From: a virus
Direction: 5' to 3' (one strand)
Virus record (IMG/VR): IMGVR_UViG_3300045988_072631
DNA length: 64,000 nucleotides
Shown here: positions 1,754 to 45,015 of the stretch, in pieces
Layout of the letters: the number at the start of each line of letters is the position of its first letter
Numbering within the stretch: the first letter of the stretch is position 1
Translations under genes and position numbers: made by a program
The notes under the pieces: model-generated
The model's database searches: none
Seen by the model: the letters and a program-made list of their open reading frames with translations, nothing else
What the model was told of the DNA's origin: nothing

Positions 1754-4570
1754 TTGCTTTTTGAAAGTGGAGGTGCTTTTCTATTGGCATCTGAAAATCT
1801 GAAACAAACAATCCAAGGATACGAAAATTATATACAGTCGCATGGAATAGACGAAACAGTCATTGAGGCATACGTAGAAGCCTGTTCCGTGGCTATAAAT
1901 AATGAAAAGGATACAGAATATGGCTTGCAACTTACAAGGCGGTCTAAAGAGCTTATAGAACGTTACTGCATGAAGCAGACCGGTGGGACGATCTGGGATC
2001 TGGAAAAATATGCGTTTGCAAATAAAACAAGCTATGATCTGATTGACAAATTCCATTCAGTATTGCTTTTGGAAGCACAAAACAAGGTGGTTGACAGCTT
2101 TTTCCGGTATATTGAGCATAAGCGAGAACCTAAAGAACGGTTCTACATGCCACGAAGGAAACAATTTTTGAAAATTGGTCTGGTGGATGCTCTACAGGGA
2201 ATGATTGATGACAAGTACGACATTTTGTGCATTAGCCTTATTCCCGGTGCCGGGAAAGCTGGAAAGATGTCGTCTAAAGTCCTAACACCAAGTGGATTCA
2301 TTGAAATGCGTGATGTAAAGGTTGGAACAAAAGTTGTGGCCGGAGACGGAGAAAAAGCGTCTGTTATTGGAGTATATCCACAAGGGAAACGCCGAATATA
2401 CAGAATTACAATGAATGACGGAGGCTTTACAGAAGTTTCAGATAATCACTTATGGGAAGTACAAAATCGGTGTGATAGACAATTTGAAACAAGGACGGGA
2501 AATCATAGAACAAGAATAATAAAAACGGAAGATATGCTTAAAGATTTTATTATTGAAAAAGACGGAAGGAAAAACTATTCTATAGACTATGTTCCCGAAA
2601 TTAAATCCTTTGAAGAAAAAAAGTTTTATATACACCCGTATCTTCTTGGATGCTTATTGGGAGATGGTGGATTAAGTACAAAAACAATTTGCTTTACAAA
2701 AAAAGATAAAGAAATAGTTGAAAAAATCAATTCACTCATTGGCGGATATGAGTTTGTCCTAAAACATGGAAGTGATAAAGATTATTATTTGCGCTCTAAA
2801 TATGCTGCAAAAAAGCCCAACCTATTAAAAGAGGAACTAAATAGATTAGGCCTTCTTGGTACAAAATCTGCTACAAAATTTATACCAGAAGAATATCTAT
2901 ATTCAAGTCATGAACAAAGATTGTGGCTATTACGTGGATTGTTAGATACAGACGGATACGCAGAATACAAGGGAATAGAATATTCAACAGCTTCTCAAAA
3001 ACTTGCGGAAAATGTAACAGAATTAGTACGTTCTTTGGGAGGATATGCGAGCTTAACAAAACGGAAATCTGGGTACAGAGACAAGGACGGCAATAGTGTT
3101 TCGTGCCTTGATAACTATAGGATTACAATTTTGTTTAGTGCAAATCATGATAATCCATTTTGGTTAGAGAGAAAAGCTAAAATATATAATCCAAAACGCA
3201 AGGTTTGGAAACGTTATATAAAAAATATTGAGTATGTAGGAGAAGAAGAGTGCCAGTGTATTATGATTGATAATCCTTGCCATTTGTACATTACAGATGA
3301 TTACATTATTACTCACAATACTACCATTGAAAAATTCTTTAATGCTGCGGTAATTGGCTGGTATCCGAAAGACTTCAATCTGTTTTATTCCCATAGTGGC
3401 GATATTACCAGAATGTACTATGACGGTATATATGATATAGTTACTAATTCAGATGAATATGCGTGGAATGAGATTTTCCCTGATTTGTATGTGACAAGCA
3501 CAAATGCAAAGACAGAACAGTTCAACGTAGGAAAATATAAGCCGTTTCCATCTGTACAGTGCACATCTGTAGGAAGCAAAAATGCGGGTAAAGTCCGTGC
3601 TTCTAAGTTTCTGCTGGTTGATGATATGATTGGCGGTATCGAGGAAGCATTGAATCCGGCTATACTTGAAAAGTTGTGGAGTAAGTATTCCGTAGATGCA
3701 CGCCAAAGAAAAATCAAAGATACTGATGGTAAGAATTGTAAGGAAATACACATTGCAACCAGATGGAGTGTCCAGGATGTCATAGGGCGTATCCAAAAAA
3801 TGTATGAAGGTAATCCGAGGGTAAAGGTAATTGCTGTTCCTGATGTTGATCCGGTAACTGGACAGAGCAATTTTGATTATGAATTTTCCGGGTTCGATGT
3901 GGAGTTCTTTGAAGATCAGCAACTTTTGATGGATGAAATATCCTACAAGTGTCTGTACAAACAGGAACCGATCGAGCGTGAAGGACTGCTATTCCCGGAT
4001 GATAAGATCAGGAGATATTTGAATCTTCCGCATGGCACACCAGAGCTTATCACAGCACAGTGCGATACAAAGGGTAAGGGAACGGACTATTTTGTTCTTC
4101 CAGTCCTGCAAAAGTACGGTGATGATTATTACTGCGTGGATGCCGTGTGCGATAATACTGCCGATTATGAGATGCAGTATGAGAATGCTGCTAACATTTT
4201 GGTAAATAACGAGGTGCAGGAATGCGAGTTTGAGCGGAATGCTGGCGGTGATCGGGTGGCAATGGAAGTCAATAAACGTGTTGAGTCTAAAGGCTGGATT
4301 TGCAACATCACCGATACACCTACAGAGACAAACAAGGAAGCAAGAATCTTCCAGTGCTCTAGCTGGATTTTACAGCATGTGATTTTCAAAGACCCATCAA
4401 AGTACAAGCCGAATGAACCGTATGGAATAATGATGTCGTTGCTGAAACAGTATTCGGTATCCGGCAAAAAGCAACTTGATGATGTGCCAGATGTGTTTTC
4501 TAACTTTGCATTAAGGATAAACAAAGGAGTTGCAAAACGGCACACAACAATTATGTCAAGCCCGATTTAA
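1754..4570 (+). CDS. terL: terminase large subunit, interrupted by an intein
   Basis: 938-aa ORF. The exteins give Walker A PGAGK/T, Walker B FLLVDDMIG, ATRWS and a nuclease-like C-terminal half. TTG start at 1754 or 1784 (GGAGG at 1769-1773). The portal gene follows. Confidence 0.9.
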   Translation: MLFESGGAFLLASENLKQTIQGYENYIQSHGIDETVIEAYVEACSVAINNEKDTEYGLQLTRRSKELIERYCMKQTGGTIWDLEKYAFANKTSYDLIDKFHSVLLLEAQNKVVDSFFRYIEHKREPKERFYMPRRKQFLKIGLVDALQGMIDDKYDILCISLIPGAGKAGKMSSKVLTPSGFIEMRDVKVGTKVVAGDGEKASVIGVYPQGKRRIYRITMNDGGFTEVSDNHLWEVQNRCDRQFETRTGNHRTRIIKTEDMLKDFIIEKDGRKNYSIDYVPEIKSFEEKKFYIHPYLLGCLLGDGGLSTKTICFTKKDKEIVEKINSLIGGYEFVLKHGSDKDYYLRSKYAAKKPNLLKEELNRLGLLGTKSATKFIPEEYLYSSHEQRLWLLRGLLDTDGYAEYKGIEYSTASQKLAENVTELVRSLGGYASLTKRKSGYRDKDGNSVSCLDNYRITILFSANHDNPFWLERKAKIYNPKRKVWKRYIKNIEYVGEEECQCIMIDNPCHLYITDDYIITHNTTIEKFFNAAVIGWYPKDFNLFYSHSGDITRMYYDGIYDIVTNSDEYAWNEIFPDLYVTSTNAKTEQFNVGKYKPFPSVQCTSVGSKNAGKVRASKFLLVDDMIGGIEEALNPAILEKLWSKYSVDARQRKIKDTDGKNCKEIHIATRWSVQDVIGRIQKMYEGNPRVKVIAVPDVDPVTGQSNFDYEFSGFDVEFFEDQQLLMDEISYKCLYKQEPIEREGLLFPDDKIRRYLNLPHGTPELITAQCDTKGKGTDYFVLPVLQKYGDDYYCVDAVCDNTADYEMQYENAANILVNNEVQECEFERNAGGDRVAMEVNKRVESKGWICNITDTPTETNKEARIFQCSSWILQHVIFKDPSKYKPNEPYGIMMSLLKQYSVSGKKQLDDVPDVFSNFALRINKGVAKRHTTIMSSPI
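2258..3319 (+). mobile_element. intein with LAGLIDADG homing-endonuclease domain inserted in the terL P-loop (candidate class 3)
   Basis: Block A KVLTPSGFIEMRDV, block B SDNHLW, two LAGLIDADG motifs (LLGCLLGDGG, LLRGLLDTDGY), C-terminal IITHN followed by T. The N boundary is ambiguous (2258 or 2267) within the GAGKAGK duplication. Confidence 0.8.
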
Positions 4571-12098: not shown

Positions 12099-12489
12099 TG
12101 GTAACCAATGGGCATTTGACATTGACACAAATGTGTTTTCAAAAATCTATGCTCAGCTTCATGAGAAATATCCAAAAGCTCTTATCACTCGTGATGAGCA
12201 GTCGAGCACCACACCTACATTCCCAACGATTCTTATACAGGCATTAGAGCCGGTAGAACGGAATCCAGATCTGGAAACTCAGATCAATAGCGTGCTGTTT
12301 AGCACACAGATCAAGGTAACTACAAACAAAGACAGAAGTACAGCCATGAGCATAGCAAGCGAAGTGGCAAAGCGTTATAAGGATTTATCGTTTCAGTTGA
12401 TTGGAATGCCTTATTGTCGGAAAGAAGATAAGCTGTGGGCAGCTACATTCCGTGCAAGACGAACATTCGATTGGAACGACAGATTATAA
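12091..12489 (+). CDS. tail completion/terminator-like protein
   Basis: ATGGCTAG overlap with the previous stop. Lies just upstream of the major tail gene. Confidence 0.45.
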   Translation: MASGNQWAFDIDTNVFSKIYAQLHEKYPKALITRDEQSSTTPTFPTILIQALEPVERNPDLETQINSVLFSTQIKVTTNKDRSTAMSIASEVAKRYKDLSFQLIGMPYCRKEDKLWAATFRARRTFDWNDRL

Positions 12490-12514
12490 AGAGCAGCAAT
12501 GCTCTTATTTTTTT
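12490..12514 (+). terminator. intrinsic terminator
   Basis: AGAGCA-GCAA-TGCTCT followed by TATTTTTTT. Confidence 0.55.
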
Positions 12515-12538: not shown

Positions 12539-12943
12539 ATGGCAACAGGCTTAAAAAGTAGAATTGCTTATAAGGAGCCGAGTTCCAGTGCAGTAGCAGG
12601 TGCTTACTGGGCAGGAACCTACAAGCTGCTTATCAGAGCAAAATCAATTCCTTCCCCGTTCGGCTCCCAGAACATGGTAGATACTTCCACTCTGGAAGAC
12701 CTTGTTGAGACTCAAGAGATGGGAAGACGTTCTGCAGGTTCCATGGAAGTTGAAGGTGCTTTTGAGAAGAAGTACAAAGATGAGATGGTTCAGAATGAGG
12801 GCAAGAAGCTCGACTTCATTATCCTGTACGGTACTGACGGAAAAGGTTCTGAAGGTATTTGCGGATTCATTGGGCAGGAGGCTTTTGCTCCCGGTGAGGC
12901 ATCCGACGACCATCTGACTGGCACTGCTACGGTTTCCGTATAG
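12539..12943 (+). CDS. major tail protein (134-aa product ending at an amber codon)
   Basis: Strong RBS AGGAGG, flanked by terminators, upstream of the chaperone pair. See the extension feature 12944-13119. Confidence 0.65.
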   Translation: MATGLKSRIAYKEPSSSAVAGAYWAGTYKLLIRAKSIPSPFGSQNMVDTSTLEDLVETQEMGRRSAGSMEVEGAFEKKYKDEMVQNEGKKLDFIILYGTDGKGSEGICGFIGQEAFAPGEASDDHLTGTATVSV

Positions 12944-13119
12944 ACCGTCCCGAAGTGGATTGAGGATGACTATGATGTTGCGGTAACAGAGGATGAGAAC
13001 GGTTATCCGACTGCTATTACACTGACAAAAAAATCATAAGCCAGTCTGCTAAAAGCAGAAAAGCCGTGGTGACTGGCTACGATGACGAAACGGCTGAGCC
13101 GGAAGTTGATATGTGGTAA
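12944..13119 (+). other. possible recoded C-terminal extension of the major tail protein
   Basis: 31 in-frame sense codons follow TAG 12941-12943. A7 lies at 13027-13033. The -1 frame stays open for 28 codons to TAA 13117-13119. A GCCAGTC...GACTGGC hairpin starts 6 nt after the A7. Confidence 0.4.
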
Positions 13120-13130
13120 AGGTGAAATGT

Positions 13131-13156
13131 GGGGCGGTCTACGGACTGCCCCCTTT
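13131..13156 (+). terminator. intrinsic terminator (weak T tract)
   Basis: 9-bp stem GGGGCGGTC/GGACTGCCC, loop TACG. Confidence 0.45.
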
Positions 13157-13187
13157 CCTATAACAGATTCATGGAAAGGGAAAAGAA

Positions 13188-13646
13188 ATGAAAGAGATTA
13201 CAGTTAATGGAAACGACTACAAATTAGAGTTTAGCTTTGAAGCAGCAGAGAGAAAAGACTTTGTGTCTATGATGTTCCGCATTGTCTCCGGCGCGGCGCT
13301 TCTGGAAGATGCGGCTGACATGGAGAATCCGACACCTAAAGATATGATTAACGGAACAATCAACATGGTATCTGATATTCCGCACATCTGCCGTACCGGA
13401 TTTTTTGTCGGTCTGATGGAGAATAACCCGGTACCAGAGACAGAAGCAAAAGCTCTGATGAAATCATATATGAAAGAGAATAAAATCGGCTATGCAGACC
13501 TGTATGAAGACCTGCGTAAATGCATGGAGGAGGACGGTTTTTTCGAGCTGTCCGGAATCACCAAAATGCTGAGCCAGATGGCAGAGAATCAGAAGCAGAG
13601 AAAAGTGCCGCAGGATCACAAGCAGAAATCAACTGGCACAAAATAA
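13188..13646 (+). CDS. tail assembly chaperone (G-like)
   Basis: 152 aa between the major tail and tape measure genes. An overlapping -1 ORF extends it. Confidence 0.7.
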   Translation: MKEITVNGNDYKLEFSFEAAERKDFVSMMFRIVSGAALLEDAADMENPTPKDMINGTINMVSDIPHICRTGFFVGLMENNPVPETEAKALMKSYMKENKIGYADLYEDLRKCMEEDGFFELSGITKMLSQMAENQKQRKVPQDHKQKSTGTK

Positions 13647-14002
13647 TCTGGGAAGAATACTTCCCGGTGGCTTTTTCCATCGGAATTTCAATAGATGAAT
13701 TTAAGCACCTTAATCCCACGAAACTTGGATATTGTCTGAAAGGCTATGCAATCCAGGAACGTAGGAAGGATGCACAGATGTGGGCATGGTTAGGAAATTA
13801 CGGCTTGTCTGCCGTGGCTACAGCCATTGAGCATAACTTTGCAAAGCATCCTAAATCCAAATATATTGAAAAACCGATGCTTCAAGATGAAAAAGAAAAT
13901 ACTTCTGGCAACACTGAGTCGAGAGAGGAATGTGCTGTGTATGAAATGAAGCAGCGAATCAACCTTCTCCGGCAGCAAGGTTTACCAGAAAGTCCTGATT
14001 AG
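13538..14002 (+). CDS. -1 frameshift extension of the tail assembly chaperone (GT-like)
   Basis: Slippery T_TTT_TTC at 13538-13544 in the G frame. The -1 frame is open to 14002, giving a predicted fusion of about 271 aa. Confidence 0.6.
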   Translation, partial: FFRAVRNHQNAEPDGRESEAEKSAAGSQAEINWHKIIWEEYFPVAFSIGISIDEFKHLNPTKLGYCLKGYAIQERRKDAQMWAWLGNYGLSAVATAIEHNFAKHPKSKYIEKPMLQDEKENTSGNTESREECAVYEMKQRINLLRQQGLPESPD

Positions 14003-14014
14003 GAGGAAATTATT

Positions 14015-14728
14015 ATGAGAATTAACGTACATGCCGGACATAACCCGGCAGGAAAAGTTGCGTGTGGCGCAGTAGGTCTTATTCAGGAGTCTGTAGAGGA
14101 CAGGAGAGTAAAGGATGAGGTTATCAATCAGCTCCGGCAGCTTGGACATACGGTCTATGACTGTACCGTGGATAATGGCACGGGACAGAAAGACGTATTA
14201 CGGAAAATTGTGCAGAAATGCAGACTGCATGAAGTTGATCTGGATGTATCCATCCACTTCAACTCCGGTGCGAATGATAAATCAGGTAACGCCAAGACAA
14301 CCGGAGTCGAGGTACTGGTTTACTCTGCGTCCAGCAAAGCAAAAGTCTATGCTGAAAAAGTCTGTGCTGCTATTGCAAGATTAGGTTTCCGGAATCGTGG
14401 TGTAAAGGTAAATTCCAGTCTGTATGTGCTGAAAAATACCAAGGCACCTGCAATGCTGGTTGAGTGCTGCTTCGTGGACGATAAGGACGATGTGAAACTC
14501 TATAATCACTATGAGATGGCATCAGCTATCGTTTACGGAATCACCGGCGAGAAGGTCTCTGCGACCTCTGAAACCGAAAAAGCAGATGCAGGTGAGGAAA
14601 CTACCACCGGCAATCCAAAAGCTCTTTATCGGGTGCAGGTGGGCGCATACGGTGTAAAGGGAAATGCGCAGACAATGGCAGATAAACTGAAAAAGGCCGG
14701 TTTTGATGCGGCAATCGTGCAGGCATAA
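14015..14728 (+). CDS. N-acetylmuramoyl-L-alanine amidase (Amidase_3) with C-terminal SPOR domain
   Basis: MRINVHAGHNPAG...SIHFN...ECCFVDDKDD. C-terminus YRVQVGAYGVKGNAQTMADKLKKAGFDAAIVQA. Confidence 0.8.
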   Translation: MRINVHAGHNPAGKVACGAVGLIQESVEDRRVKDEVINQLRQLGHTVYDCTVDNGTGQKDVLRKIVQKCRLHEVDLDVSIHFNSGANDKSGNAKTTGVEVLVYSASSKAKVYAEKVCAAIARLGFRNRGVKVNSSLYVLKNTKAPAMLVECCFVDDKDDVKLYNHYEMASAIVYGITGEKVSATSETEKADAGEETTTGNPKALYRVQVGAYGVKGNAQTMADKLKKAGFDAAIVQA

Positions 14729-36616: not shown

Positions 36617-37216
36617 ATGAGTAAAGCATTGGATATGGCAAGAGAACTGGTTAAGAAGCTGGAAGAAGAGGAAAAACAGCCAAAAGTGCAGCTTTTAACT
36701 TTGAATCCGGGAAATGTATTCAAAATTGGAGAGCATGATTTTATTGTACTGATGCAGTGCAGAGAGGAAACAGCAGTAATTTCCAAAGGATTCATGGCTG
36801 AAAATGTGAAATTTGATGAGGATTCGAGAAACTATAAAGAGTCAAATCTGAAAAAGGTTATCGAGAATCTGATCCAGCCGGTTATTGAGAAGGAAGTCGG
36901 ATCAAAAAACCTTATTGAGCATGAGGTTGATCTGACAAGTGTAGATATGCAGGATGAGTTCGGAGGATTCAAGTGCAAAGTCAGACCAATCACATTCGAA
37001 GAAGCCAGACTGTACAACAATTTACTGGTTAATAAAAACCTTAATGATTGGTGGTGGACATGCACACCTTGGAGCACAGAAGACAGAGGATGGAAATATT
37101 CAATTGCCGTTGTTGCTCCGTCCGGCCTTATCAACGACAACTATTTCAGCAACTGCTACGGTGTTCGCCCGTTTTGTATCTTAAAATCTAATATCTTTGT
37201 ATCGAAGGGAGAATGA
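36617..37216 (+). CDS. DGR target protein 1 (C-type-lectin-fold variable C-terminus)
   Basis: C-terminus WWWTCTPWS...VVAPSGLINDNYFSNCYGVRPFCI contains VR1. Confidence 0.8.
   Translation: MSKALDMARELVKKLEEEEKQPKVQLLTLNPGNVFKIGEHDFIVLMQCREETAVISKGFMAENVKFDEDSRNYKESNLKKVIENLIQPVIEKEVGSKNLIEHEVDLTSVDMQDEFGGFKCKVRPITFEEARLYNNLLVNKNLNDWWWTCTPWSTEDRGWKYSIAVVAPSGLINDNYFSNCYGVRPFCILKSNIFVSKGE
37107..37180 (+). repeat. DGR variable region VR1
   Basis: The 74 nt align to TR with 11 differences, 10 of them at TR adenines. Confidence 0.85.
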
Positions 37217-37857
37217 AAATGGGATTAACAATGAAAGCATTGCAGGAACAGATTGATGTGTTAAAAAAAGAAATGGAAGAGCTGAGAAGCGGCCAGAAAG
37301 TAGAATGCAACAAGAAATTTTCCAAATTTCTTACTATTGGTGAAACATTTGAACTGGCAGGAGTTAATTGGAAGATTATTGATATCACGAGTGATGGTTA
37401 TGTTTGTCTGTCTGATTCTATAGGTGAAATGAAATTCAGCTCTGAAAACAATGACTGGAGAACCAGCAATCTTCGAAAATATTTGAATGAAGAATTTTTG
37501 AAAAAGATGGAATCAGAAATCGGGACAGGTAATCTGATCAAATTTGAGAGAAGCCTTCTTTCTTTGGACGGTCAGACGGAGTACGGAACATGTGATGATA
37601 AAGTTTCACTTTTGACAGTGGATGAGTACCGGAAATACAGAAAGCTCATTCCAAATACAGACGATTGGTTCTGGTTGATTTCTCCGTGGAGTACACCTTG
37701 CAATGGCTTCAACAACAGTGTTACCGTTGTTGCTCCGTCCGGCAATATGCCTTCAACTACGGCGGTTACTACGGCCGCTGCGGTGTTCGCCCGTTCTGTA
37801 TCTTTTCTTCTGCAATCTTTGAATCAGAGGAAAAATAAATGCCAGAAACAGAACTGA
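37213..37857 (+). CDS. DGR target protein 2, frame-shifted inside its variable region
   Basis: Paralog of target 1 (WFWLISPWS...VVAPSG). A 5-nt duplication in VR2 shifts the frame. The ancestral frame ends at TAA 37836-37838. Confidence 0.7.
   Translation: MKMGLTMKALQEQIDVLKKEMEELRSGQKVECNKKFSKFLTIGETFELAGVNWKIIDITSDGYVCLSDSIGEMKFSSENNDWRTSNLRKYLNEEFLKKMESEIGTGNLIKFERSLLSLDGQTEYGTCDDKVSLLTVDEYRKYRKLIPNTDDWFWLISPWSTPCNGFNNSVTVVAPSGNMPSTTAVTTAAAVFARSVSFLLQSLNQRKNKCQKQN
37724..37802 (+). repeat. DGR variable region VR2 (79 nt, carries a 5-nt duplication)
   Basis: Positions 1-25 correspond to TR 1-25. Positions 26-79 correspond to TR 21-74 with adenine-specific changes. Confidence 0.8.
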
Positions 37858-38210
37858 AAGTAATTCTGAAAGCAAAAGATCTGGCAGCGCATACTTTGAG
37901 AGTGACATCGAATTGCAACCGGTATCCTAAAAAGTATAGATTTTCATTGGTGGACAAGATGCAGAATAAAGCACTTGAAATTTATGAATATTTGTACGAA
38001 GCCAACCGGACAGATTTGAAAAATTTTAAAAAGGAGCGATCAGAGTTACAGACAAAAGCAATCACAAATTGCGATGAATTGTTGTTTTATATCGAATTAT
38101 CAATGAAACTTAATATTATCAGCATGGAAAGCACGGAGTATTGGTCGAAAATGGTGTCCGATATAAAACATATGGCGATTGCATGGAGAACCAAAGATAA
38201 AGGACGATAA
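37839..38210 (+). CDS. avd: accessory variability determinant (Avd, four-helix bundle)
   Basis: 123 aa, basic and helical, lying between the targets and TR/RT. Confidence 0.75.
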   Translation: MPETELKVILKAKDLAAHTLRVTSNCNRYPKKYRFSLVDKMQNKALEIYEYLYEANRTDLKNFKKERSELQTKAITNCDELLFYIELSMKLNIISMESTEYWSKMVSDIKHMAIAWRTKDKGR

Positions 38211-38235
38211 AATTATAGGTTATGCGCTGTTTAAA

Positions 38236-38309
38236 CCGTTGTTGCTCCATCCGGCAATATCAACAACAACAATTACAACAACAGCAACGGTGTTCGCCCA
38301 TTCTGTATC
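38236..38309 (+). repeat. DGR template repeat (TR)
   Basis: A-rich AAC-codon tract (..AATATCAACAACAACAATTACAACAACAGCAAC..) matching both VRs. Confidence 0.85.
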
Positions 38310-38407
38310 AAACAGGCAGTTAGAGTAGGCAATAAGCCGAAATCAGAGAAAGATACAAAAAAGTGCATGACCTTCTCGAATAGGGTAAATACAAAGGAAT
38401 TTTTACA

Positions 38408-39430
38408 ATGGATAAAGATGTTATATGCAGCTATGAAAATCTGTATAAGGCATACCGGAAGGCTAAAACTGGAAAAGGTTTTAATGGAAGCTGTGCAAAA
38501 TTTCAGACTATGAATCTGGAAGGACTTCACTTATTGAAAGAACAACTGGAAAATCAGACATACCGGTTGAATCCGTACAACGAATTTAAGGTTTACGAAC
38601 CGAAAGAAAGAGTGATTAAATCGTGTTCTTTCAAAGACAAAATCGTCCAACATTGCTTATGCGACGAGATTTTGCATCCTGCATTAAGGGATCGCTTTAT
38701 TAGTACGAATTATGCAGGGCAGCAGGGGAAAGGTACTCATTTTGGAATGGATTGCTTGAAAGAGCAAATGATTGATTTTTATGAAGAACATAGACTTGAT
38801 GGCTGGATTCTTAAATGTGACATTAAAAAGTTTTTCTACCAGATAGACCATGAGATCCTGAAAAGAATTGTTGACTATCACTTTCCAGATGAGTACACCA
38901 AATGGTTGAATCACCTGTTTATTGAAAGCACAGAAGGTCTGGGGCTTCCACTCGGGAATCAGGTAGCTCAGGTATATGCACTTCTGATGCTAGATGGTAT
39001 GGATCACTTCATTACCGAAACACTTGGAATATCCAGATATGGAAGATACATGGATGATTTCTATTTGATCTATCCAGATAAAGAGTATTTGATGTTTTGT
39101 CTAAAACAGATCCGAGAATTTCTTGGAAGGCTGGAACTTGAATTGAATGGAAAGACACAGATTGTCCCATTCAAATGCGGAATAGCATTTACAGGTTTTC
39201 ATCACTACGTAACATTGGAAGGAAAATACATAAGAAAATTGAGTGGAACAAACAAACGAAAGATGCGTAAGAAAATCAGGAAATGGTCAGAACTGGTTAG
39301 ATCCGGGAAAATGACGGAAGAAAAATTTTTTGAGAAGTACAACGCTTGGAAAAACCATGCATTACATGGGAATTGCATTAAGTTGTGCCACTCGATGGAT
39401 TTATATGTAAAAGAATTATTGGAGGAATAA
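38408..39430 (+). CDS. DGR reverse transcriptase
   Basis: 340 aa. CDIKKFFYQIDH, LPLGNQVAQ, RYMDDFYLIY (YMDD). Confidence 0.85.
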   Translation: MDKDVICSYENLYKAYRKAKTGKGFNGSCAKFQTMNLEGLHLLKEQLENQTYRLNPYNEFKVYEPKERVIKSCSFKDKIVQHCLCDEILHPALRDRFISTNYAGQQGKGTHFGMDCLKEQMIDFYEEHRLDGWILKCDIKKFFYQIDHEILKRIVDYHFPDEYTKWLNHLFIESTEGLGLPLGNQVAQVYALLMLDGMDHFITETLGISRYGRYMDDFYLIYPDKEYLMFCLKQIREFLGRLELELNGKTQIVPFKCGIAFTGFHHYVTLEGKYIRKLSGTNKRKMRKKIRKWSELVRSGKMTEEKFFEKYNAWKNHALHGNCIKLCHSMDLYVKELLEE

Positions 39431-41500: not shown

Positions 41501-41938
41501 ATCAATAAAGTAATTTTAACAGGTAGATTCGCGAAAGACCCTGACGTTAGATACTCAAACGGAGAAAAGACAACTGCGGTTGCGAGATTTACTCTGGCAG
41601 TAGAACGAAGATTCAAAGGTGATGGAAATCCGACGGCTGATTTTATCAACTGTGTAGCATTCGGAAAATCCGGGGAGTTTATCGAAAAATACTTCCGCAA
41701 AGGTATGAAAGCTAATATTTGTGGACGGATTCAGACCGGCTCTTATACGAATAAGGACGGAAACAAGATCTACACCACAGATGTTCTGGTGGAAGAAATT
41801 GAGTTTGGTGAAAGCAAAAGCAGCAATCAGCAGAGCGCAGCTCCGGCTAATCCAAGTAATGCAGTTAATCCAATGACTGATGAAAATGGTTTCATGAACA
41901 TCCCAGATGGAATTGATGAAGAGTTACCGTTTGCGTGA
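41501..41938 (+). CDS. ssb: single-stranded DNA-binding protein (no canonical start codon)
   Basis: INKVILTGRFAKDPDVRYS...DEELPFA*. The frame opens after TGA 41495-41497. The first plausible codon is ATC 41501, 8 nt after AAAGGTGG. Confidence 0.7.
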   Translation: MNKVILTGRFAKDPDVRYSNGEKTTAVARFTLAVERRFKGDGNPTADFINCVAFGKSGEFIEKYFRKGMKANICGRIQTGSYTNKDGNKIYTTDVLVEEIEFGESKSSNQQSAAPANPSNAVNPMTDENGFMNIPDGIDEELPFA

Positions 41939-41954
41939 TAAAGAGGGTGAGAAA

Positions 41955-42659
41955 ATGAAAAAATTTGAACTTACAGCAGAATGCGTAACAAATATTTTTG
42001 GAAAAAAATTATTCAGAATCAAAGCACTGGTAGCATTTGAAAATGTGAAAGAAGGAGATCTGGGCGGATTCGTGGAGAAAGAATCTAACCTCGCTAATAG
42101 CGGTAAAGCATGGGTTTGCGGTGATGCACAGGTCTACGGTGAAGCACAGGTCTCTGGTAATGCACAGGTTTGCGGTGATGCACAGGTCTACGGTGAAGCA
42201 CAGGTCTACGGTAATGCACAGGTTTGCGGTAATGCACGGGTCTGCGGTAATGCACGGGTCTACGGTGAAGCATGGGTCTACGATAATGCACGAGTCTACG
42301 ATAATGCACGGGTCTACGGTGAAGCACAGGTCTACGGTGAAGCACAGGTCTACGGTGATGCACAGGTCTACGGTGATGCACAGGTCTACGGTAATGCATG
42401 GGTTTGCGGTAATGCACGGGTCTCCGGTGATCTGGATTATGCAATTGTTGGAGGTTTTGGAAGTGAGCAGCGGACAACTACATTTTTCCGGCAGAAGGAC
42501 GGAACAGTAGGAGTGAGGTGCGGATGCTTTTACGGAACACTGGAAGAATTCAGGGGAAAAGTTAAGAAAACGCACAAAGACAGCAAATACGGACAGGAAT
42601 ACCTGATGATTGCAGATCTGATGGAATTACATTTTGCAGGAGGAAAAGAGAATGAATGA
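41955..42659 (+). CDS. hexapeptide-repeat (beta-helix-like) protein
   Basis: 18 tandem G[DEN]A[QRW]V[YCS] units followed by a Cys-containing globular C-terminus. Confidence 0.6.
   Translation: MKKFELTAECVTNIFGKKLFRIKALVAFENVKEGDLGGFVEKESNLANSGKAWVCGDAQVYGEAQVSGNAQVCGDAQVYGEAQVYGNAQVCGNARVCGNARVYGEAWVYDNARVYDNARVYGEAQVYGEAQVYGDAQVYGDAQVYGNAWVCGNARVSGDLDYAIVGGFGSEQRTTTFFRQKDGTVGVRCGCFYGTLEEFRGKVKKTHKDSKYGQEYLMIADLMELHFAGGKENE
42102..42425 (+). repeat. 18 tandem 18-bp coding repeats
   Basis: GGTGAWGCACAGGTCTAC-type units. All six frames are open across it. Confidence 0.9.
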
Positions 42660-44025: not shown

Positions 44026-45015
44026 ATGATTCAGATTTTAGAATTGTTCGGCGGTATTGGATCTCCGCGATGCGCCTTGCGCAACCTCGGGATCCCTGTA
44101 AAAGCCATCGACTATGTGGAAATAGATGAAAAGGCAGTCAGAAGCTATAACGCAATGTTTGCCACTGACTTGCCATACAAAACGCAAAGTGTAGTCGGTT
44201 GGAATTTGAAGCCAGATATCCTGATACATGGCAGTCCGTGCCAAGATTTTAGTATTGCCGGTAAACAGAAGGGCGCAGACGAAGGATCAGAAACACGGTC
44301 AAGCCTTATGTGGGAGACAATACACATTTTATTGCAGATGGGTGCATGGAAACCAAGGTATGTCATCTGGGAGAACGTGAAGAACGTGCGGAGCAAGTAC
44401 ATGGTACACAATCACAACAGATATATGTCTGAAATGGAAAAAATGGGATACACCAGTAGCTATGAGCTTCTGGACGCAAGAGATTTCGGACTCCCTCAAG
44501 CAAGACAAAGATATTTCACGGTGTCTGCACTCGGGACGGAATATTTTGATTTTTCTGATCTGATACACACACCAATGCGTAATATAAAAAATTTCCTAGA
44601 AACAGATGTGCCAGACTACTACGTGGTAACACAGCCAAGCATGTTGCGGAGAATAGATGGGTTATCTGACTATGACGGGAGCTTCAAAGGGAGAGTGCCT
44701 GTAATCAGAGATTATGCAATGACAATAACCTGCAAACAGATGCGCAGTCCGAACAGTGGGGTTGTGGATATTGGGAATGGGAAATACAGGTATCTTACAG
44801 AACGGGAGTGTTGGAGAATCCAAGGCTATACCGATGAAGATTTTGAAAATGCAAAAAGAGTGCATCCAGGGAAAGAAAATTGTCTGAACGGTGCACTGTA
44901 TAAGCAGGCTGGAAACAGCATACCTGTCCCGATCTTTGAAAGCCTGTTCCGTAAGATAATTCTCGGAGAAACAGAGAAAATTGAAGATCAGACCGGTCAA
45001 CTCCGGTTCGCGTAA
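44026..45015 (+). CDS. DNA (cytosine-5)-methyltransferase
   Basis: FGGIGS, GSPCQDFS, ENV, QRR/RE motifs, GNSI near the C-terminus. Confidence 0.85.
   Translation: MIQILELFGGIGSPRCALRNLGIPVKAIDYVEIDEKAVRSYNAMFATDLPYKTQSVVGWNLKPDILIHGSPCQDFSIAGKQKGADEGSETRSSLMWETIHILLQMGAWKPRYVIWENVKNVRSKYMVHNHNRYMSEMEKMGYTSSYELLDARDFGLPQARQRYFTVSALGTEYFDFSDLIHTPMRNIKNFLETDVPDYYVVTQPSMLRRIDGLSDYDGSFKGRVPVIRDYAMTITCKQMRSPNSGVVDIGNGKYRYLTERECWRIQGYTDEDFENAKRVHPGKENCLNGALYKQAGNSIPVPIFESLFRKIILGETEKIEDQTGQLRFA

Follow-up and report, generated by a model that had tools for sequence, protein, structure and literature searches.

A predicted -1 frameshift cassette at the end of a tail-tube gene, and a private amber codon in the same gene, of a human-gut phage

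A putative major tail gene in a 64,000-nt stretch of viral DNA (IMG/VR record IMGVR_UViG_3300045988_072631; the whole stretch is hereafter the window) raises the question of which proteins it encodes, and whether two unusual features in its 3' part, an in-frame amber codon and a run of seven adenines (A7), belong together. The open reading frame (ORF) at 12539-12943 on the plus strand has a good AGGAGG ribosome-binding site and ends at a TAG (12941-12943) after 134 amino acids (aa). The zero frame continues past this TAG for 31 codons (TVPKWIEDDYDVAVTEDENGYPTAITLTKKS) to TAA 13037-13039, and the A7 run just before that stop gives access to a -1 frame that is open from 13033 to TAA 13117-13119 (IISQSAKSRKAVVTGYDDETAEPEVDMW). 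A preliminary description of the locus had reported the 134-aa ORF, its TAG and the 31 codons beyond it, as well as the A7 at 13027-13033, a GCCAGTC/GACTGGC stem 6 nt further on, and the 28-codon -1 frame, and all of these are present at the positions given there. It also listed possible products of 134, 166, and 193 aa. From a comparison with relatives, we consider it highly probable that this is a tail-tube gene with a -1 frameshift cassette conserved in its lineage and, in this strain, a private amber knockout. The 166- and 193-aa forms would be the normal ones in relatives, whereas the 134-aa product is a truncation caused by mutation rather than a further programmed form. The A7 frameshift cassette and the amber codon are thus two unrelated things in one gene.

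Taken alone, the features in the window are not statistically striking. An open frame of 28 codons has an estimated chance of about (61/64)^28 = 0.26 in one sequence, and the minimum free energy (MFE) of the hairpin region alone is modest (-20.5 kcal/mol, z = -2.7). The case therefore rests on comparison with relatives. Among 156 distinct related loci, the heptamer A_AAA_AAA is in register in 139, and three more have a run of eight adenines (A8). The run at 13027-33 has the X_XXY_YYZ register by which -1 slippery heptamers are recognized. The spacer that follows is exactly 6 nt long in every in-register A7 or A8 haplotype with the first stem of the downstream structure (expected range about 5-9 nt), and the zero-frame stop lies 0 or 1 codons 3' of the heptamer in all in-register relatives, with spellings that vary (TCA TAA, GGG TGA, TCG TGA, GCG TGA, TAG, and TAA). 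The A8 alleles (3/156 loci; L001/L002, L003, and L065) fuse the extension in frame, yielding proteins of 191-199 aa (P0004, P0005, P0006, P0015, and P0021) that are essentially singletons. These alleles may be real long-form-only variants or homopolymer errors; either way, they reveal the long form.

The -1 frame also carries a coding signature. Across 15 diverged relatives, it has no stops in 405 codons, compared with 42 (zero frame) and 56 (+1 frame) over the same stretch. The extensions are 23-34 aa long, and their lengths differ by whole codons only. They follow a family pattern of x-x-S-Q-S, a basic stretch, K-A-V, x-G/D-Y-D-D/E, an acidic stretch, and a hydrophobic or aromatic end; the extension in the window is likewise basic first and then acidic, ending hydrophobic (...GYDDETAEPEVDMW). 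Both the open -1 frame and its acidic composition are kept through the variable region 3' of the second stem of the downstream structure. A search of the extension against Pfam gave no match, and it is not an Ig-like or FN3 domain. Structure modelling predicts it to be disordered: the homologous extension of the modelled A8 homologue P0004 has a pLDDT of ~40 and one short helix. The end of the transcript is consistent with translation of this region. A terminator-like hairpin lies 8-14 nt past the -1 stop in most clades, and so follows this stop and not that of the zero frame, and together with a second one 5' of the gene it flanks the tube gene plus the -1 extension (Table 1). Since the terminator follows the -1 stop, the transcript would include the extension.

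As judged from the alignments, the stimulator downstream of the slip site is a conserved H-type pseudoknot, and both of its stems show compensatory changes. Stem 1 begins 6 nt 3' of the A-run and is 7 bp in every clade, in versions that include GCCAGTC/GACTGGC, GTCAGTC/GACTGAC, GCCAATC/GGTTGGC, GCCAATC/GATTGGC, CCCAGTC/GGCTGGG, and GTCAGCC/GGTTGAC. Stem 2 forms from the 3' part of the stem 1 loop and a stretch 8-13 nt past stem 1, and is a 6-7 bp helix found in the same place in 25/25 haplotype representatives. It occurs in at least eight sequence versions (AGCCGT/ACGGCT, GGCTGTT/AACAGCC, AGACCGT/ACGGTCT, GGCTAC/GTAGCC, TCGGCTA/TAGCCGA, TCTACCG/CGGTAGA, CTGCCGT/ACGGTAG, and GGCTGC/GCAGC). This second stem had been overlooked in the preliminary description, which instead drew an inner TCTGC/GCAGA hairpin in the stem 1 loop. 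That hairpin is not conserved, and 9 nt of the loop are missing from one clade (L020).

Pairs were counted on a plain MAFFT alignment of 24 distinct sequences, with 500 shuffles. In stem 1, 98.8% of cells were paired and both sides had changed in 4/7 pairs; in stem 2, both sides had changed in 4/5 scored pairs. Because a one-codon indel in loop 3 ends up in the wrong place for some clades, in MAFFT as well as in protein-guided alignments, only five stem 2 pairs were scored, and misaligned rows were counted against the structure. For both stems together, 93.4% of cells were paired versus 84.5 +/- 1.0 in shuffles (0/500 as high), 8/12 pairs were altered on both sides (1/500 as high), and the covariation score was 0.405 versus 0.239 in shuffles (0/500 as high), although these shuffle counts are not probabilities and, the sequences being related, such controls overstate significance. 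When partners were slid by 1-3 columns, 7%-49% of cells were paired. We find the slid controls, along with the variety of paired versions, convincing as comparative evidence for the predicted fold. A search of Rfam returned nothing credible (best match PrrB_RsmZ, 19 bits vs a gathering score of 44).

Table 1. Positions in the window of the tail-tube gene, the predicted frameshift cassette, and the flanking hairpins.
Feature	Position	Strand	Remark
Terminator-like hairpin 5' of tail-tube gene	12489-12506	+	Consensus scan
Tail-tube (major tail) protein gene (predicted), zero frame	12539-13039	+	166-aa product normal in relatives; TAG at codon 135 here
In-frame amber codon, CAG-to-TAG (Gln135 to stop)	12941-12943	+	None in 156 relatives; strain-private
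Slippery heptamer A_AAA_AAA, zero frame ACA AAA AAA	13027-13033	+	In register in 139/156 relatives
-1 frame extension, 28 codons + TAA 13117-13119	13033-13119	+	Product 193 aa in relatives
6-nt spacer TCATAA, including zero-frame stop TAA 13037-13039	13034-13039	+	Constant in cassette haplotypes
Pseudoknot stem 1, 5' arm GCCAGTC	13040-13046	+	Pairs with 13071-13077
Pseudoknot stem 2, 5' arm AGCCGT, within stem 1 loop	13062-13067	+	Pairs with 13090-13095
Pseudoknot stem 1, 3' arm GACTGGC	13071-13077	+	Pairs with 13040-13046
Pseudoknot stem 2, 3' arm ACGGCT	13090-13095	+	Pairs with 13062-13067
Terminator-like hairpin, 11 nt past -1 stop	13131-13152	+	Conserved in relatives

Profile, structural, and positional evidence all point to a siphophage tail-tube (major tail) protein with a lambda gpV-like fold, in agreement with the earlier assignment as a major tail gene. 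With the TAG read through, the E value of the match to PHROG 158 (phrog_158, major tail protein) falls from 3e-4 to 3.4e-7, and the match then reaches residue 159. Searches of the protein against Pfam and PDB sequences gave no match. A large protein collection contains 477 homologues, counted as protein clusters, nearly all of them 165-167 aa long, and a few sources label them "tail tube protein." Foldseek comparison of an AlphaFold model of a 94%-identical natural homologue (mean pLDDT 67, pTM 0.63) found the lambda gpV tail tube (8k36_A, E 4e-4, probability 1.0), and the top matches (8k36_A and 8k35_L of lambda, and the YDC107, NF5, Sf11, 80alpha, and GTA tubes) had probabilities of 0.84-1.0, E values down to 2e-4, and TM scores of 0.41-0.53. 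The gene lies 3' of neck and tail-completion genes and 5' of a G/GT chaperone pair and a gene for a 1653-aa tape measure protein. Across the tube-protein family, the normal product is 165-168 aa, spans the TAG site, and already covers the entire lambda gpV-like tube fold, which leaves no ground for the suggestion that 193 aa is the more typical length.

The window represents one temperate phage (terminase, portal, capsid, integrase, CI-like repressor, and a diversity-generating retroelement) and is collinear, at ~95% identity, with a 60.8-kb IMG/VR record (G001). It belongs to a roughly 60-67 kb temperate siphophage of human-gut Lachnospiraceae. The tube gene was found at 393 loci in IMG/VR, carried by uncultured human-gut phages, and more distant relatives in assembled bacterial genomes are mostly in gut metagenome-assembled genomes of Lachnospiraceae, Lachnospira, and Eubacterium. 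Among GenBank phages, the sole related record is an unannotated faecal fragment (MT837185.1). The capsid gene in the window has an in-frame Ig domain, and a frameshift tag like that of the tube gene was not found there.

On comparative grounds, the TAG arose by a single, recent, strain-private C-to-T nonsense mutation, and the gene in which it occurred has been under very strong purifying selection. Codon 135 is a stop in none of the 156 related loci (CAG in 99, GCT in 24, AAA in 21, and other sense codons in the rest), and homologues align across the site, with Q there in close relatives. The alignment of homologues that had been proposed as a check thus finds relatives spanning the TAG codon, just as they keep the A7. 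The exact 30-nt flanking context occurs in 10 contigs (IMG/VR and JGI metagenomes), all 10 with CAG. The TAG allele is present only in ENA contig ERZ826364 NODE_392 (67,650 bp, 7.5x coverage) and Logan contig ERR3451329_1697, which both match the window at 100% identity over 4.7-6.4 kb; the remaining "134-aa" records come from contigs that break off at the site or no more than two bases from it, reading ...GTAC(A). Over the 581 nt of the gene and -1 extension, 19-31 positions separate the window from its closest relatives, and differences within the gene are nearly all synonymous, with no private amino-acid change 3' of the TAG. Hence, it appears that the tube gene was under strong constraint until recently. 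Of the two origins first considered for the amber codon, a nonsense mutation is therefore the better fit, as a private CAG-to-TAG change, while readthrough or suppression lacks support, given 0/156 relatives with a stop and other evidence weighed below. The further suggestion of a decaying prophage finds no support in the comparison with the 95%-identical G001, in which no other conserved gene is broken. Two further "stops" flagged in that comparison lie upstream of likely true starts, and hence are not lesions.

The consequences for the protein can be predicted from the fold. In the tube model, beta-strands 145-151 and 157-164 lie past residue 134, and in phage SPP1 tube polymerisation is blocked on removal of the C-terminal arm (PMC8718954). 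Since the 134-aa product loses both strands and the C-terminal arm is needed in SPP1, the truncated product would presumably be unable to assemble, and this strain's copy of the phage is most likely defective in tail assembly.

Some further observations concern the amber region. Five independent metagenome contigs (L103-L107) terminate at codon 134/135 or no more than two bases away (...GTTTCCGTAC[A]), and private synonymous changes are clustered at 12901-12922 in the window. The region at ~12900-12943 looks like an assembly-graph branch or a recombination junction inside the tube gene. In addition, the phage encodes a C-5 cytosine methyltransferase (44026-45015). The amber mutation is a C-to-T transition, and such transitions are favoured at methylated cytosines.

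Taken together, these features suggest the following course of translation. In relatives, most ribosomes would stop at the zero-frame stop and release the 166-aa tube subunit. A fraction would pause on the pseudoknot, which 6 nt past A_AAA_AAA would sit at the mRNA entry channel, and the two Lys-tRNAs on the heptamer could then slip back one base in tandem. Translation would run on for 23-34 codons (28 in the window) and produce the 193-aa long form as a fixed minority of subunits. By analogy with other frameshift-extended tail proteins, the 166- and 193-aa forms probably co-assemble. The C terminus of siphophage tube proteins faces outside in known tubes (PMC8718954), and the tail is therefore probably displayed outward on a subset of subunits; our best guess for its function is a docking or adhesion peptide. 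In this strain, the C-to-T change has turned Gln135 (CAG) into a TAG, 84 nt 5' of the slip site; translation would halt at 134 aa with loss of the last two tube beta-strands, and neither normal form would be made, save by rare misreading of the stop.

Other explanations of the extension are conceivable. RNA polymerase stuttering on the A7 could add one A to the mRNA, giving the long form without ribosomal slippage. The A8 DNA alleles show that an inserted A creates a fusion identical to that of a -1 shift; slippage is known to occur at homopolymer A-runs (PMC5009743), and the rare A8 alleles show that the run is either unstable in length or error-prone in sequencing. Nonetheless, we regard stuttering as quite unlikely. 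A downstream structure cannot affect a polymerase that has yet to transcribe it, but the pseudoknot is conserved at a fixed 6-nt spacing, and the run is kept at exactly seven, in the X_XXY_YYZ register, in 139/156 loci. The A7 is also shorter than the run that efficient bacterial transcriptional slippage usually needs, which is nine or more A's. Alternatively, the -1 frame might be untranslated, with the pseudoknot serving message stability, processing, or terminator control and the open frame being a by-product. This would accommodate the overlap of the conserved peptide motifs with the stem arms, the predicted disorder of the extension, the existence of a close clade that lives without the cassette, and the location of the tube gene between terminator-like hairpins with other conserved hairpins nearby. 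It is nevertheless very improbable in light of the absence of stops from 405 -1-frame codons (vs 42 and 56 in the other frames), the open and acidic frame through the variable region past stem 2, the perfect register of the slip site, which falls either on the final two sense codons or on the two that precede the final one, and the changes in extension length by whole codons only.

As for the amber codon, the TAG might be absent from the real genome, as a sequencing or assembly error or a low-coverage minority variant in a phage that has CAG. The ENA contig has a coverage of only ~7.5x, the allele is found only in assemblies that are 100% identical to the window and possibly derive from the same reads, and five other contigs break off at the TAG position or up to two bases from it, as at an assembly-graph branch point. 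However, the differently produced ENA NODE_392 and Logan ERR3451329 assemblies agree on the base, the truncated protein is on record from JGI, Logan, and ENA (~10 contigs with the stop), and consensus substitution errors are rare with Illumina data, and we therefore consider an artefact unlikely. A phage in which the TAG is decoded, via a host amber suppressor, readthrough by a near-cognate Gln-tRNA, or early TAG-to-Gln recoding, would make enough full-length protein and be viable. The codon replaced is exactly Gln, the amino acid inserted in known TAG-recoded phages, and no further amino-acid changes have accrued 3' of the TAG. Moreover, the contig is about as large as the phage genome, with the integrase gene in its interior, and so resembles phage DNA in a free or circular form rather than an integrated copy. 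Against this, there is only one in-frame TAG in the window, TAG terminates 21/86 ORFs there, no tRNA genes were found in the window, and the stop is not shared by any relative; missing downstream decay is equally expected of a very recent mutation. Given that TAG is an ordinary terminator and that the window has no tRNA, the code is not reassigned, and we rejected reassignment of TAG as Gln. Programmed stop readthrough was rejected as well, as a leaky stop at this codon is not conserved in the 156 relatives. Decoding of the TAG in any of these forms is accordingly a very faint prospect.

Several points weigh against the combination of a -1 frameshift cassette and an amber knockout that we favour. 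The peptide motifs SQS, KAV, TGY, and ETA coincide with the four stem arms, such that conservation of peptide and of RNA is not fully separable, and part of the peptide conservation would be RNA constraint. For example, a TGY-to-TDY change (Gly to Asp) is matched by a synonymous change in SQS. Besides the relatedness of the sequences used for the shuffle controls, many stem changes go via G-U intermediates, and swapping cognate for non-cognate stem 2 arms, with G-U allowed, is weakly discriminating (6.6 vs 5.0 contiguous pairs). The AlphaFold model of the tube homologue is only moderate in quality, as its mean pLDDT indicates. The shift and its rate are both inferred from sequence for an uncultured lineage, and a 94%-identical clade lacks the cassette, so the extension is dispensable. 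Finally, the TAG rests on assemblies of ~7.5x coverage, perhaps all from one sample.

The distribution of the cassette bears on this dispensability. In the clade concerned (L016-L019; 94% refers to the tube protein), the whole ~80-nt cassette is precisely missing, ACT AAA AAA replaces ACA AAA AAA, and the same terminator hairpin lies 11 nt past the stop codon. More distant relatives are also without the cassette. With the cassette missing from so close a clade, it behaves as an insertion/deletion module. A pattern scan for the cassette gave at least 111 sites, and among the matches listed, 97 follow a homologue of the tube gene, which suggests that the cassette is essentially confined to the tube gene family among these matches. 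The other 14 listed sites were set aside as chance matches or tail-chaperone G/GT-type sites. A comparable arrangement was observed in a different tail gene of unrelated phages (L233, L238, L277, L290, and L306), which at apparent G/GT chaperone sites have A_AAA_AAA, a 6-nt spacer, and a GCCAGCC...GGCTGGC stem, followed by -1 extensions of >50 aa with an EPFG motif.

We tentatively consider, as a doubtful but not negligible idea, that the ~80-nt unit is a gainable and losable module whose flexible acidic docking tail brings a partner protein or a ligand on the host surface to a defined share of the subunits. If so, the module would be a minimal peptide-tag counterpart of the Ig-domain decorations in other phages. 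More speculatively, frameshifted ribosomes, which would stop 8-14 nt before the terminator stem, could reduce termination, in which case the rate of shifting would be coupled to how strongly the tail genes further downstream are expressed. The 13131-13152 hairpin is followed by a second inverted repeat, CCTTTCC...GGAAAGG, which overlaps the chaperone gene's ribosome-binding region. The two hairpins in this interval (13131-13185) are conserved in many relatives and could control translation or termination of the downstream tail genes.

Frameshifting is an established source of long major tail proteins in SPP1, in Lactobacillus phage A2, and in the Listeria phages PSA, A118, and A500 (PMC5009743, PMC8718954); the preliminary description had also mentioned such proteins in Firmicute phages. 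New here are the slip site, the stimulator, the short, unstructured, acidic addition, and the uncultured Lachnospiraceae phage lineage. In Lactobacillus casei phage A2, -1 frameshifts give long forms of both the major head and major tail proteins (PMC5009743). As in A2, a gene for a major virion protein of a Firmicute siphophage would here yield short and C-terminally extended forms through a -1 shift at its 3' end, whereas the A2 extension is described as Ig-like (PMC5009743) and that of the lineage studied here has 23-34 residues, is predicted to be disordered, and has no domain match. The slip site A_AAA_AAA and pseudoknot are also lineage-specific, with no detectable sequence relation to A2. 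In SPP1, translational frameshift produces two tube forms, gp17.1 and gp17.1*, that are both incorporated at 3:1, and the gp17.1* extension is dispensable for infectivity (PMC8718954), which is paralleled here by the clade without the cassette. However, gp17.1* adds a folded FN3 domain proposed to bind cell-wall sugars, and not a short acidic peptide. More generally, the predicted extension lacks the folded domain that defines Ig-like and FN3 decorations such as those of SPP1 gp17.1*, A2, and T3. The tsh (tail shaft) genes of Listeria PSA, A118, and A500 likewise yield a second major tail product by recoding at the gene end beside the stop (PMC5009743), but use a +1 shift at CCC_UGA, unlike the -1 shift at A_AAA_AAA with a downstream pseudoknot predicted here.

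The lambda-type G/GT system is similar in having, within a tail gene, a canonical -1 slippery heptamer by which the ratio of two products is fixed. It differs in that G/GT is a chaperone outside the virion, and in that the extension of GT amounts to an entire domain (roughly 150 aa). The window has its own G/GT pair at 13188-14002, with a -1 site T_TTT_TTC at 13538-13544 (zero frame GGT TTT TTC) and a -1 ORF that ends at 14002; this site is a second programmed frameshift, about 500 nt past that of the tube gene. With regard to the amber codon, the window resembles TAG-to-Gln recoded gut phages in having an in-frame TAG where relatives have Gln. It differs from them in its single TAG, the use of TAG to end 21/86 ORFs, the lack of a suppressor tRNA in the window, and a stop that no relative shares. 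The phage belongs outside this recoded group. Hence, when a stop codon replaces Gln within a gut-phage gene, recoding should not be concluded from that alone.

No annotation of the frameshift product was seen in the records of this lineage, in which gene callers record only the 166-aa protein, or a 191-199-aa oddity where the run reads A8. The cassette would represent a compact and comparatively well-supported bacterial -1 frameshift pseudoknot, and the natural compensatory variants in both stems could serve as a ready-made reporter series. If the extension is made as predicted, then tail-tube frameshift extensions need not be Ig-like domains.

Other parts of the window had features of their own. 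An Amidase_3/endolysin-like gene (14015-14728; phrog_435, E 1e-70) lies between the chaperone genes and the tape measure gene, an unusual spot for a lysin. The large terminase ORF (1754-4570; 938 aa) contains a LAGLIDADG/Hom_end homing-endonuclease block at residues ~377-459, before the terminase nuclease domain, which suggests an intein; this putative intein may account for part of the extra length of the window relative to G001. The diversity-generating retroelement (36617-39430) includes a reverse transcriptase gene (38408-39430; RVT_1) and an A-rich template repeat (38260-38346), two diverged copies of which (37131-37217 and 37753-37839) are located at the 3' ends of ORFs 36617-37216 and 37213-37857, indicating two variable target genes. 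Lastly, ~25 tandem copies of an 18-nt unit at 42047-42496, within ORF 41907-42659, would encode a hexapeptide-repeat protein.

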